From Escherichia coli (GTDB lineage Bacteria; Pseudomonadota; Gammaproteobacteria; Enterobacterales; Enterobacteriaceae), in assembly GCF_030384885.1 (NCBI RefSeq), contig NZ_CP128613.1: a DNA stretch of 64,000 nt. One strand, written 5' to 3'. The position numbers were made by a program, and so were the translations under genes. Under the pieces are notes generated by a model. That model made no database searches and had not been told where the DNA came from. It saw nothing but the letters and a program-made list of their open reading frames with translations. Shown here in pieces: positions 3,037-17,943 of the stretch; positions within the stretch are counted from its first letter, which is position 1; every line of letters starts with the position of its first letter.

Positions 3037-4185
3037 TTACACGTGAGCAACGGGTTTCGGCGTATGACCGGCGTTGCGAAGCAGCATCAGCAAATAGATA
3101 AACGATACGCTGGCGATCATGATAAACAATAAATTATCGGAGAAATTCTGCATTAGCATGGCAGTAAATGACGGGCCAAGCAGACTTCCCACAGTATAGC
3201 TCAACAGTAAGGCCTGGTTCATCGCCACCAGTTGATGATGTTCAACTTTCTCGCAAGCCCATGCCATCGCCACCGGATATAGCGTAAAGCCAGCGGCACC
3301 GAGGATGAATAACGCTGGGGCCATCGCCGCCTGGCTAAGCATCGCGATACTGCCGAGAATGACGACAAAGACCTGAACACGCAACACCAGCAGTCGACCA
3401 AACTTATCGGCCAGACGTCCAATCGGCCATTGTCCAAGGATACCCGCACTGACCAGTACCGCCATCCAGAAACCAATGCTGGCATTGCTCACCCCTTTGT
3501 GATTGAGGTACAGCGGCATCAGGCCATATAGAGATCCCCGAACGATTCCTGAGATAATGCAGCCATTCACGCCAAGCCGCGCCTGACGGAGTTTTAGCAT
3601 TGACGTAATTGACGTCGAATCATGGTTTTCAGCCTGCTGATTCAGCACACGCGTAAACAACAGCGGTAAGATCCCTGCCAACGTCAAACCTGTAACCCAC
3701 GGCAATACGGACATCAGCTCGGTTGAAACTTTGCTGACCAGTAACTGGCCTAAAAACGTTCCCACGTAATAAACCATCATATACGCAGCAAGCAAACGAC
3801 CACGGTTACGTGACGTCCCACTGCACATCAGCGCGCTCTCAACGACCACCCAAATCATGGCACAGCCGACACCCGCTACAAAACGCCACGCCAACCAGCT
3901 CCAGAAACCAATCATCAGGCCAAGACCTGCACAGCCAGCGGCAAAAATGAAGGAGGCCAGATAATAGCTGCGGTTAAAGCCAATGCGCTTAATGACATAC
4001 CCTGTCAGCAATGTACCGACCAGGTTGCCGGTAAAATAGGATGAGCTGACAACGCCTACCTGCCATGTGGACATATGTTCCTGGGCGAGCCAAAGCGGCA
4101 CGAGTGTATTTAACACTGCGATCGCCAAAGTCAACAAAAGCAGGCCAGACAGCAAAAGCATGACAGGCCGGGTATACGTGGACAT
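3037..4185 (-). CDS. ycaD: MFS transporter
   Basis: ORF track 382 aa; multiple hydrophobic helices; length matches K-12 YcaD. Confidence 0.9.
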
Positions 4186-12843: not shown

Positions 12844-15800
12844 TTAGTCAAACGGCGGTGGGGCCAGCACTTCACGATTACCGTTGTGCCCCTGTTCGCT
12901 GACAATCCCTTGCGCTTCCATCTGTTCGATAATACGCGCTGCACGGTTATAACCAATGCGGAACTGACGCTGTACGCCTGAAATTGACGCTTTGCGTTTT
13001 TCAATGACAAACTGCACCGCCTGATCGAACAACGGATCCAATTCTTCAGCGCCATCGAAACCACCCGCACCACCTTCGCTTTCGCTGTCGGAGGTGATGC
13101 CGTCAACATACTGTGGGCGACCACGCGCTTTCCAGTCCTGCACCACGGCATGAACTTCCTGATCGCGAACAAAAGCACCATGAACACGTACCGGCAACGT
13201 GGAGTTCGGCCCAGAGTAAAGCATATCCCCCATACCCAGCAGTGATTCCGCGCCAGCCTGATCAAGAATGGTACGTGAGTCAATCTTACTGGATACGGTA
13301 AAGGCGATACGGGTCGGAATATTCGCTTTAATCAGACCAGTAATAACATCAACCGATGGACGCTGAGTTGCCAGTACGAGGTGGATACCCGCGGCACGGG
13401 CTTTTTGCGCCAGACGTGCTATCAGCTCTTCCACTTTTTTACCTACCGTCATCATCAGGTCGGCAAATTCGTCCACCAACACCACAATGTACGGTTCCTT
13501 TTTCAGCACCGGATGCTGCGCATCCATACTGTCACCCGGCTTCCAGTACGGGTCTGGAATCGGACGCATCATGCGATCGGCTTCAGCAATTTTTTCGTTA
13601 TAACCCGCCAGATTACGCACACCCAGTGCAGACATCAGTTTATAACGACGCTCCATCTCGTTAACACACCAGCGCAGCGCGTTGGCGGCATCTTTCATAT
13701 CGGTAACGACTTCCGTTAACAGGTGCGGAATGCCTTCATAAACCGAAAGCTCCAGCATTTTCGGGTCGATCATGATGAAACGCACATCTTCTGGCTGTGC
13801 TTTATAAAGCATGCTCAGGATCATCGCGTTCACACCGACAGACTTACCGGAACCGGTAGTCCCCGCAACCAACAAGTGCGGCATTTTCGCCAGATCGGCA
13901 ACCACCGGCTCACCGGCGATATCTTTACCCAGCACCACGGTTAATGGCGACGGATTATCGCGGAATTTGGCGTTATCCAAAACTTCGCGCAGATAAACGG
14001 TTTGTCGTTTTTTATTCGGTAACTCCAGACCTACATAGGGTTTGCCAGGAATAACTTCAACGACACGCACCGCCACCGTCGAAAGTGAACGGGCAAGGTC
14101 ACGAGACAAGTTAGAAATGCGCGCCGCTTTTACGCCCGGTGCCAGGTTTAATTCAAAGCGAGTGATAACCGGCCCCGGAGAGTAATTGACGACATCGGCT
14201 TTAATACGGAAATCAGCCAGACGCGCTTCCACCAGACGCGCCATTTGTTCAAGCGCAAAGGTATCTACCGGCTCCACTTCGCTCGGCGGCGGTGTCAGCA
14301 AATCCAGAGAAGGCAGCGGCGTCGTCGGTTTATGCAACGGACGGCTGTCGCCATTACGCATCAACAGCGGATGAAGCAGGGTATCCTGCGGCTGCGGCGC
14401 AACCGGTTGTTGTGGCTGCTGATACTGCGGCTGCGGCGCAACTGGCTGTTGCGGCTGCTGATATTGCTGCTGTGGTGCAACCGGCTGTTGCGGCTGCTGA
14501 TATTGCTGCTGCGGTGCAACCGGTTGTTGTGGCTGCTGATATTGCGGCTGCTGATATTGTTGCTGCGGTGCAATCGGTTGTTGCGGCTGCTGTACAGGTT
14601 CAACAATTGGCGTAAACAACGGTTCGTGTGGACCATCATCCAGCAACGCTTTCATTGGCGAAAATTCAAAATCATCCAGCGAGAACGGATTCGCCCCAGC
14701 CGGTTGTTCGCCCGAATAACGTTGCTGTTGAGTTTGAGCAAACTGACGAGCCAGTTCTGCCTCTGCTGCAGCATCTGTATCTTCTGCGTTGACTGGCACA
14801 TCATGTTGATACTGTTCGCCATAGCGTTGCTGCTGCGTCTGGGCGAACTGACGCGCCAGTTCATCCTGCTGCATCGCATCGATTTCATCATCGTTATACT
14901 GATCGCCGGAATCGTACTGATTGCGCTGGGCTTCACGGGCTTTTTCTTCTGCTGCACGCTGTGAGGGCAGCTTAATACCGTAAGACGCCAGTTCACGACG
15001 AGTTGGCACGCGGATGCGTTTCGGTCGTGGCAACTGCGGGCCAATCCCCTCTTTGACCTGCGGACGCGGTCCAGCGCTATTTGCCAGACTGAAAACTGGC
15101 GCGGCAACGGTTGCGGCAGCCCCCGTCGCCAGTGTCGCTTTTTTCACACCAGATGCCAGCGGAGAAACAGCGGCAGCGGCTTCTACTGGAGGTACTGCTG
15201 CAACAGAAGGTGCTTTCAGCGAAGATTTGATCGATTCCGGTTCTTTAACCGGTTCTGGAATCGGTTGATACCAGGCCGCAAGTTGTTCACGTTCACGGGC
15301 TCGCTTCTCTTCCACTTCTTCAAAATAGTAAAGCGGCGGACGCGTGGGTTTTGTCTCTTCTACAACGGGTTCAGGCTCCACAACAGGCTGCTGTTCAACG
15401 GGTTGCGGCTGTTGGTACAACGGCTCCTGAGCGGCTGGCTGCTGATAAGTTTGCTCAGTCTGGTATGTAGACTGTGGAGCAAAAGTGGATTGCTGCTCTT
15501 CGGCTTGCCAGGCGTTACCTGCCATCGATTGTTCTGGCGCAGGGGCGTAATACGGCTGTTGCGCAGACTGTTCCGCCGCAGTTGTGTAATACGGCTGCTG
15601 AACAGGTTGTTCCGCCGCAGGAGCGTAGTAAGGTTGTTGCACAGGTTGTTCCGCCGCAGGCGCATAATACGGCTGCTGTGGCTGTACAGGTTGTTGCAGC
15701 GGCTCATTATATTGCACTGCAGGCTGCGCATATTGTGGCTGCTGAGGGTAACCTTCCGGTGCAGGAGCAATAACCGGCTCTCCCGTTTGTGGCCCCGGTA

Positions 15801-16887
15801 CAGGCTGCCAGGCTACTGTAGGTTGCGCAGGTGGAACATCAACAGAGGCAACTGGCGGCGTCTGAGTCACAGGTTCAACCGGTGCAGCCCAGCTTTGTGT
15901 CGCCGTGGAAGCAGCAGCTGCTACAGCAACAGGTTCGGTAATTGGCGCACCGTTTAATAATGGATCGTATTCGTCATATTCTGGCTGCGTTGCACGATTG
16001 CCCGAAAAGAGGACGTCGTCAGGGTCGGCAGCCACACCGCGTGCAGTGTAGGTAATCTCTTCTTCATCATCCATCCGCTTACCGGAGAACAACGCAGCAT
16101 CTGTTTGCCGCCCCATCGGATTAATAAATTTTTCCGCCAACCGTTTACGACGCGCTAACGCGCCGCGAAGAATACGGGCACGGCGCGATTCATGCTGTTT
16201 GCCGTGATTTTCATCTTCATATTCTTCGTCGTCTTCATACTCATCTTCATCGACCCAGGTATCATCGCGACGGGTACGATTACTGGCGAAGGTGAGAATG
16301 TTTAAAATCCAGCCGCCAAGTTTTTCAGCAATGGTCACCCATGACCAACCGGTAAACAGTGTCAGGCCCGCCGCCCAAACGCAGAGCAGCGCAATAGTTC
16401 CCCCGCTACTGTGTAGCAGTGGTTGTAGCGTAGTGCTTAGTAAGCTGCCGATGACGCCACCGGAGGCAAAATACCAGATATCGTCAGCGTTGATTGCCGC
16501 CAGACCACAAGAGGTAAGGATGAGCGCCAAAACGCCAATGATGCGTAGCGAAACGGCAAAATAATCAATGTATTCGTCACTGGACTGATGACGCCAGGCA
16601 AACCAACAGCCGCCGACGATAATGACGGGAATGGTGTAAGCCATCACGCCAAAAATAAAGAACAGCGTATCTGCCAGCCACGCACCGGGCATCCCACCTA
16701 AATTATGGATAGGTTCATGCCAGGCCGTTTGCGACCAGCTGGGGTCCGAAGGGTTAAAGCTTAGTAAGGCAGCCATCAACCAGACGGCAAACAGGACAAT
16801 AAGGATCAGCAACGCCTCCAGAAGGCGGCGGCCGCTACTTAACTTTGTCAATGTGACTTCTTTGTCTTCAGTGTATTCCTGGCTCAA
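12844..16887 (-). CDS. ftsK: DNA translocase FtsK (N-terminal membrane domain, Pro/Gln-rich linker, C-terminal motor)
   Basis: ORF track 1347 aa; C-terminal Walker-type motor domain; linker with tandem PQ-rich repeats. Confidence 0.95.
14386..14595 (-). repeat. In-frame tandem repeats (about 36-bp unit, roughly 5 copies) in ftsK linker
   Basis: Translation shows reiterated [13 protein letters not shown] units; DNA shows near-identical reiterated units. Confidence 0.8.
15532..15681 (-). repeat. In-frame tandem repeats (about 42-bp unit, roughly 3.5 copies) in ftsK linker
   Basis: Translation shows reiterated [13 protein letters not shown] units. Confidence 0.8.
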
Positions 16888-16965
16888 GAAAGGCTCTCCA
16901 GGTTACAGGCTTTTCCTGCCCGATGCTAAAACGGACAACAGTACCAGGTTACCCCAGTACTGTTG

Positions 16966-16981
16966 CTGTATGGATTAACAG
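16966..16981. promoter_or_regulatory. LexA (SOS) box upstream of ftsK
   Basis: CTGTatggattaACAG matches CTGT-N8-ACAG, about 80 bp upstream of the ftsK start; ftsK is known to have an SOS-inducible promoter. Confidence 0.65.
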
Positions 16982-17021
16982 GAGTGTAATCAAAATACGC
17001 CGATTTTGCACCTGTTCCGTG

Positions 17022-17516
17022 TTAGCGCGTCTTAATAACCAGACGATTACTCTGCTTGACTTCTTCCATAACAACGTATGTCCGCGTGTCATTGACGCCA
17101 GGCAGACGCAGCAGGGTTTCCCCTAGCAACTTACGGTAAGCCGACATATCCGGCACGCGTGTTTTCAACAGGTAGTCGAAATCACCGGATACTAAATGAC
17201 ACTCCTGAATTTCTTCAAGTTTTTGTACAGCGGTATTGAATTGTTCAAACACATCCGGTGCGCCACGATTCAGAGTAATCTCAACGAATACCAGAAGTGA
17301 TGCATCCAGATAATGGGGGTTCAGCAGCGCTGTATAGCCCTGAATAAACCCTTGTCTTTCCAGCCGACGCACACGCTCAAGGCACGGCGTTGGGGAAAGT
17401 CCCACACGTTTAGAAAGCTCGACGTTAGAAATACGCCCATCCTTTTGCAACTCATTAAGAATGTTACGATCGATACGGTCGAGATCTTTGCCAGGGCGCT
17501 TCTTGCTATCTACCAT
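17022..17516 (-). CDS. lrp: Leucine-responsive regulatory protein
   Basis: ORF track 17022..17570; start set to ATG 17516 (MVDSKKRPGKDLDRID...), 164 aa. Confidence 0.95.
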   Translation of the reverse strand: MVDSKKRPGKDLDRIDRNILNELQKDGRISNVELSKRVGLSPTPCLERVRRLERQGFIQGYTALLNPHYLDASLLVFVEITLNRGAPDVFEQFNTAVQKLEEIQECHLVSGDFDYLLKTRVPDMSAYRKLLGETLLRLPGVNDTRTYVVMEEVKQSNRLVIKTR

Positions 17517-17943
17517 TATTATTGTCTCTCTGTATTCCTTCCCTACTCCTGTCTGACCCTGAAACATCACTGTTCAGAGTCGCTACCCGTCACGATAGAC
17601 CGAAATCATTAAGATTCACGGCGCGCAATGCCTGGTCTACGGTGAGAAGACCGTTGCCTGGTGGCAGCTATCGACATCACGAATGGCGTCTGTCCACGCC
17701 ATACGTAGATTTCACTAGCACGGTAAACATGGTATTTACATGCATGGTTATGCGCATATAAGAATACTGTTTTTTTTCTTCCTCGAATGTTTTCGCAAAA
17801 CACCAGGGGATTGTCAAAGCAAAACATCGATTTTTAGTACAACATGCCAGATATTCATTAACAGGGGCGTTTATTCATCATTTAATCGGCTTATAACGCG
17901 GGAAATTTAAGTAGCAGAGGTGATAATGCCGGAGGGAGTTTGA

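Follow-up and report, generated by a model that had tools for sequence, protein, structure and literature searches.

The window, a stretch of 64,000 nucleotides of Escherichia coli DNA, carries lrp and, downstream of it, ftsK on the minus strand; both genes appear in the list of open reading frames and are confirmed by the RefSeq annotation of identical E. coli genomes. The 134-bp intergenic region between them is 100% identical to that of K-12 MG1655, and the 1-kb stretch around the LexA box described below is 100% identical to E. coli strain 2013C-4282. Coordinates were converted by the relation that the K-12 coordinate equals 950,111 minus the window coordinate, and the features of the locus are collected in Table 1. 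FtsK comprises 1347 aa in the window and 1329 aa in K-12 (calculated from the K-12 coordinates), a difference in length that probably lies in the proline/glutamine-rich repeat linker.

Table 1. Features of the lrp-ftsK locus, in the order in which they are met on the minus strand
Feature	Position in window	Strand	Remarks
lrp CDS	17022..17516	-	164 aa + stop; TAA 17024-17022; ORF list and RefSeq annotation
-35 hexamer GTGCAA, ftsK P2	17006..17011	-	TGCA invariant; starts 10 nt past the lrp stop codon
Weak A/U inverted repeat CAAAAT-N6-ATTTTG	16991..17008	-	only hairpin-like feature of the segment 16966-17021
-10 hexamer TACACT, ftsK P2 (dinH)	16983..16988	-	TA.ACT invariant in the 71-sequence alignment
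LexA box, 20-mer TCCTGTTAATCCATACAGCA	16964..16983	-	identical to the published ftsK operator
LexA (SOS) box, 16-mer	16966..16981	-	CTGTTAATCCATACAG on the coding strand
ftsK P2 transcription start	16976..16977	-	K-12 933,134 or 933,135; inside the LexA box
lrp terminator hairpin, 14 bp	16935..16966	-	also +11 to +42 of the ftsK P2 transcript
Interrupted U-rich tail CCGUUUUAG	16926..16934	-	read from the sequence
Shine-Dalgarno GGAG of ftsK	16896..16899	-	8 nt before the TTG start codon
ftsK CDS	12844..16887	-	1347 aa; TTG start 16887-16885; ORF list and RefSeq annotation

The motif that the earlier note had read as an SOS box is an exact match to the pattern CTGT-N8-ACAG (CTGTATGGATTAACAG on the plus strand, window 16966-16981). 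It lies where that note had placed it: the TTG start is 79 bp away from its near edge (described there as about 80 bp upstream of ftsK), and 40 nt separate it from the TAA of lrp (described as a few tens of bp past the stop codon). An ftsK operator with the same sequence as the window's box has been published upstream of a UV-induced gene (PMC3009722).

On its own, the bare pattern is not significant, as the 64 kb contain two matches where 0.67 are expected, and at least two occur in 14 of 100 shuffles. Since this count is at chance level, we used a weight matrix instead, which was symmetrised and built from 17 published LexA operators (Table 4 of PMC3009722) with ftsK left out. The ftsK box scores 15.8-16.2 bits and is the best match in the window. 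When true LexA operators are scored in the same leave-one-out manner they span 9.2-26.9 bits, and the ftsK box falls at the weak end of this range, next to dinB. The weight-matrix score had been named in the earlier note as the check on its reading, and at about 16 bits the box is not below threshold. A score this high arises about 0.075 times per shuffled 64 kb and about 1.6e-4 times per 134-bp intergenic region; extrapolation from the 64-kb shuffles gives several chance matches at this score per 4.6-Mb genome. In addition, the published heterology index (HI) of the ftsK box is 9.2, between ydjM (9.0) and dinB (9.4) (PMC11228462), which is below the usual cut-off of 15 (PMC11002266).

Two weaker matches are found elsewhere in the window. 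The second occurrence of CTGT-N8-ACAG (window 52654-52669, 11 bits) lies inside artJ, and the next-best matrix match after the ftsK box (window 3190-3209, 12.7 bits) lies inside ycaD. Both are probably chance matches, given that they are in coding sequence and that only the weakest true operator scores lower.

The ftsK P2 promoter occupies the interval from the stop codon of lrp to the box, with a single base (C16982) left between the -10 hexamer and the LexA box. The -35 hexamer matches the consensus at three of six positions. The spacer between the hexamers is 17 bp long in all species inspected, and its sequence is variable; this combination of fixed spacing and variable spacer sequence is the signature of a sigma-70 promoter. 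Simple scans of the minus strand called neither P2 as a promoter nor the hairpin downstream of the box as a terminator; the terminator scan probably missed the hairpin because the maximal stem absorbs the first U of the tail, which brings the T count under the threshold. Both elements were consequently judged from folding, covariation, and published transcript ends.

The conversion between U00096.2 and NC_000913.3 coordinates at this locus we take to be 776-777, and the Cappable-seq and SMRT-Cappable-seq positions are offset by 776 at ftsK and by the same amount at the lrp start site. Specifically, Cappable-seq gives a start site at 932,358 (U00096.2 coordinates), and SMRT-Cappable-seq gives a start for b0890 (ftsK) at 933,134 (NC_000913.3 coordinates; PMC6131387). 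The P2 start is thus T16977 or A16976, uncertain by 1 nt; A16976 puts the -10 hexamer at the canonical -12 to -7 and the LexA box at -5 to +11. The resulting 5' UTR of ftsK is 89 nt long. In the minimum-energy fold of this leader, UCCA inside the box (16971-16974) pairs with UGGA (16897-16900), which overlaps the GGAG; the pairing is probably not conserved, as the UCCA bases vary between species.

Further upstream, a good match to a sigma-70 promoter (TTGAAG-N18-TAGTAT, window 17181-17218, minus strand) is found inside lrp, just upstream of a Cappable-seq start at 932,153 (U00096.2; approximately window 17181/2). This is probably the dispensable ftsK P1 promoter, which the literature places inside lrp. 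As far as the work of Dorazi and Dewar (2000) is relayed in PMC4080785, P2 is dinH and essential, and P1 is located inside lrp.

The earlier note had further described the box as sitting directly beside the lrp terminator. A terminator does adjoin the box; however, it is not in the segment that was flagged (16966-17021) but on the ftsK side of the box; the final G of the box doubles as the first base of the terminator hairpin. The hairpin folds with -21.9 kcal/mol (z = -5.3). Across 71 aligned sequences, 12 of the 14 pairs in the stem carry compensatory double changes, pairing holds in 90.5% of cells (31-58% when the partners are slid), and the double-change cells number 74, compared with 13.5 +/- 3.2 in shuffles. 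The tail directly after the stem (UCCGUUUUAG) is a poor U-tract, and it is poorer still in Serratia and Pectobacterium. No Rfam family matched window 16800-17900 at E-values up to 1.

Published transcript ends fall at the base of this hairpin. Term-seq reports a 3' end at K-12 933,176, which is window 16935, in at least two growth conditions (Adams et al., PMC7815308). In those data, the end is not Rho-dependent (Rho score 1.03), its intrinsic-terminator score of 1.70 is below 3.0, read coverage across it is nearly unchanged (475 vs 419), and it is entered as a 5'-UTR 3' end located 48 nt before ftsK (PMC7815308). SMRT-Cappable-seq, in turn, shows lrp transcripts that span 932,327 to 933,177; of 367 lrp reads, 147 stop at 933,177, 49 stop within the next 50 bp, and 158 continue into ftsK (median read-through 1,297 nt; PMC6131387). 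This end was labelled "novelTTS", i.e., a terminator that was uncatalogued at that time (PMC6131387). Altogether, the hairpin at 16966-16935 is a leaky lrp terminator that is about half efficient.

The Term-seq study lists two further sites nearby. A strong 3' end in the lrp 5' leader (K-12 932,430, approximately window 17681, 165 nt upstream of the lrp start codon) has an intrinsic-terminator score of 7.4, which suggests premature termination in the lrp 5' UTR or a leader-derived RNA (PMC7815308). About 350 nt into ftsK, a significant Rho-termination region is reported at K-12 933,580 (approximately window 16531; Rho score 1.6; Adams et al., PMC7815308).

To assess conservation, the lrp-ftsK region was fetched from 80 Enterobacterales species using Lrp as the anchor. 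The LexA box is present in 76 of them, where the best matrix match lies 36-53 bp after the lrp stop and scores 12.4-20.5 bits. The CTG and CAG arms are invariant across these 76 species, with TCCTG and ATACAG unchanged, and the inner bases drift from species to species (e.g., TCCTGTGTATGTATACAGTT and TCCTGTTTATGCATACAGTT). In the 71-sequence alignment, the invariant columns are exactly TGCA of the -35, TA.ACT of the -10, and CCTG and TACAG of the LexA arms. The sequence CCTGGAGAG precedes ftsK in nearly all of the 76 species. Within E. coli, the module is found in 5425 of 5426 complete genomes, and 5,385 of 5,426 records carry the 88-bp module at an identity of 99% or more. The 1-kb stretch around the box likewise matches 5,425 of 5,426 complete E. 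coli genomes, which annotate it as lrp and ftsK.

The length of the intergenic spacer takes two forms among the species, approximately 120 bp or 134 bp. In the longer form, to which E. coli belongs, the ftsK 5' UTR has one more small hairpin (GGCAGG-AAAA-GCCTG, window 16901-16920), placed between the terminator and the ribosome-binding site.

The module is lacking in three Providencia species and Moellerella, in which neither a P2 promoter nor a LexA box was found between lrp and ftsK and the hairpin still directly follows lrp. A relocated box was sought in these species, and the best matches reach only 7.9-13.7 bits at unrelated positions; the module is therefore absent rather than moved. Their ftsK genes have an unrelated upstream leader of 400-900 bp and an ATG start. 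In this lineage, ftsK may no longer belong to the SOS regulon. Since the hairpin is kept after lrp where the box and the promoter are absent, we assign the hairpin to lrp and the box to ftsK.

LexA binding at the ftsK site has reportedly been addressed by Lewis et al. (1994). ftsK is listed among the genes with a known SOS box (PMC6590174), and, as related in PMC12133099, EcoCyc has a LexA site annotated at ftsK. UV induces ftsK, and the exact box sequence was recovered as a LexA motif (PMC3009722). With AZT, ftsK is upregulated 1.5-fold and its dependence on LexA cleavage (lexA3) is 1.7-fold, both highly significant (PMC11228462); in one time course, the induction was transient (PMC11002266). 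Furthermore, a massively parallel reporter study found a repressor footprint at the ftsK promoter that vanishes with H2O2 (PMC12133099). In weighing these lines of evidence, we note that our own analysis supplies the sequence with its matrix score, the conservation across species, and the covariation of the hairpin, and that the positions of transcript starts and ends, the lexA-dependent induction, and the loss of the footprint on H2O2 come from published data.

With the operator sequence equal to the published one, a matrix score inside the range of true operators, and an HI of 9.2, the SOS-inducible ftsK promoter (dinH) proposed in the earlier note is upheld. We conclude that the motif is very probably the LexA operator of this promoter (dinH = ftsK P2), and that promoter and operator together are placed after the stop codon of lrp and ahead of its terminator.

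Other explanations of the palindrome have to be weighed against this conclusion. That it is a chance match without LexA function would agree with the chance-level count of the bare pattern and with a matrix score toward the weak end of the range; however, the fixed position in 76 of 80 species, with arms and inner bases behaving as expected of an operator, the transcription start inside the box, and the published lexA-dependent induction together with the footprint lost on H2O2 make the probability of a chance match practically negligible. Alternatively, the conservation of the block might reflect not LexA binding but the elements that it overlaps, namely, the discriminator and start site of the promoter at one end and the stem of the terminator at the other. 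The box does overlap both the start region of the promoter and the stem, and CTG is preceded by an invariant TCC where the LexA consensus has TA. Yet invariance falls exactly on the two arms, CTG and CAG, which are spaced 10 bp apart; in species outside Enterobacteriaceae, the hairpin begins about 6 nt after CAG, and CAG is still invariant; the LexA matrix gives higher scores, up to 20.5 bits, to the more distant species; and the footprint acts as an H2O2-responsive repressor site (PMC12133099). We therefore regard conservation through overlap, in place of LexA binding, as very improbable, if somewhat less so than a chance match.

Similarly, the position of the terminator and the role of the hairpin allow other readings. 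If the lrp terminator were situated between the lrp stop and the box, the downstream hairpin would merely be an element of the ftsK 5' UTR, and the small A/U inverted repeat followed by U-rich sequence in that stretch could be taken as such a terminator. That stretch (17021-16984), however, gives no sign of a terminator, since it folds no better than shuffles (-2.9 kcal/mol, z = +0.7; 151 of 200 shuffles fold as well) and its structure is not conserved. The scan called no terminator in 16982-17021, and the Term-seq data report no 3' end there (PMC7815308); the published ends of lrp transcripts are at 933,176/7, past the box. The inverted repeat sits in the variable P2 spacer and is not a terminator. 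Together with the Providencia and Moellerella sequences, in which lrp is still followed by the downstream hairpin although box and ftsK promoter are both absent, these observations render a terminator ahead of the box extremely improbable. A different question is whether the downstream hairpin also serves as an attenuator or stabiliser in the ftsK leader that sets how much SOS transcription reaches ftsK, and that may release an RNA of about 42 nt. Consistent with such a role, P2 transcription begins 10 nt ahead of the hairpin, about half of the lrp transcripts stop at the hairpin, Adams et al. count its 3' end among 5'-UTR ends (PMC7815308), and the arrangement is conserved in 76 species. On the other hand, the 3'-end data do not separate P2-derived from lrp-derived ends, coverage barely falls across the site, and the hairpin persists without the promoter. 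Since it persists where the promoter is absent, lrp termination is enough to explain its conservation, and the additional role in the ftsK leader is a tentative possibility that we consider rather unlikely. In 76 of the 80 species sampled, the SOS promoter has stayed ahead of the lrp terminator, so that every SOS-induced transcript begins 10 nt before a hairpin of roughly 50% efficiency. Less probable still, and in our view doubtful, is the stronger proposal that this arrangement is a built-in attenuator that caps FtsK induction, or that it is the source of a functional 42-nt SOS-inducible RNA (K-12 933,135-933,176).

Returning to the LexA-controlled P2 promoter, we propose the following mechanism. 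On the minus strand, the control region runs from the lrp stop through 10 nt, the -35 GTGCAA, the 17-bp spacer, the -10 TACACT, and one base to the LexA box, and continues with the 14-bp terminator hairpin (+11 to +42), the poor U-tract, the GGAG ribosome-binding site, and the TTG of ftsK. A LexA dimer on the box would lie over the start site and also over the downstream end of the -10 hexamer, so that RNA polymerase would be blocked by steric occlusion; that is, since the start site lies inside the box and the promoter abuts it, LexA would repress by blocking the start site. Upon DNA damage, RecA-stimulated self-cleavage of LexA would free P2. Since the terminator follows the box in the direction of ftsK, transcripts from the SOS promoter must cross it, and these transcripts would be partly stopped at the hairpin.

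The modest induction of ftsK can be attributed to the weak operator and to read-through from the lrp promoter and from the promoter inside lrp. More fully, the weak operator, LexA-independent read-through, and a P2 start only 10 nt before a half-efficient terminator plausibly explain the small SOS induction.

Comparison with known systems places the locus among familiar ones. The window shares with the known E. coli ftsK/dinH operator its 20-mer, the neighbouring genes, its position, and the intergenic sequence of K-12, and the operator shows no differences. The weak-end LexA operators of dinB (HI 9.4) and ydjM (HI 9.0) resemble it in their CTG-N10-CAG arms, in their comparable HI and matrix score, and in overlapping a promoter. 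dinB is nevertheless induced 5.4-fold, whereas ftsK is induced only about 1.5-fold (PMC11228462); this gap is likely due to the LexA-independent transcripts that reach ftsK from the lrp promoter and P1. The lrp hairpin, for its part, resembles the leaky intrinsic terminators between same-strand genes (the read-through or "novelTTS" class of SMRT-Cappable-seq) in having a stable GC-containing stem, a 3' end at its base, Rho independence, and partial read-through. In contrast to that class, its U-tract is interrupted and its published intrinsic score is under the threshold, and the regulated promoter of the next gene (ftsK P2) is located upstream of the terminator and fires into it.

The ftsK LexA box is therefore correctly identified and is an already known regulatory site, in line with the view of the earlier note that a LexA site at the ftsK/dinH promoter is not a novelty. 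As a sanity check the locus holds, with lrp and ftsK on the minus strand and a textbook SOS operator in the expected place. What our analysis adds is a corrected map of the 134-bp spacer, a start site inside the box, and conservation across the order. ftsK is consequently served by three kinds of transcripts, namely, those from the LexA-controlled P2, which cross the hairpin, those that read through from the lrp promoter, and those from P1 inside lrp, and these three sources help to account for the place of ftsK among the SOS genes with the weakest induction.
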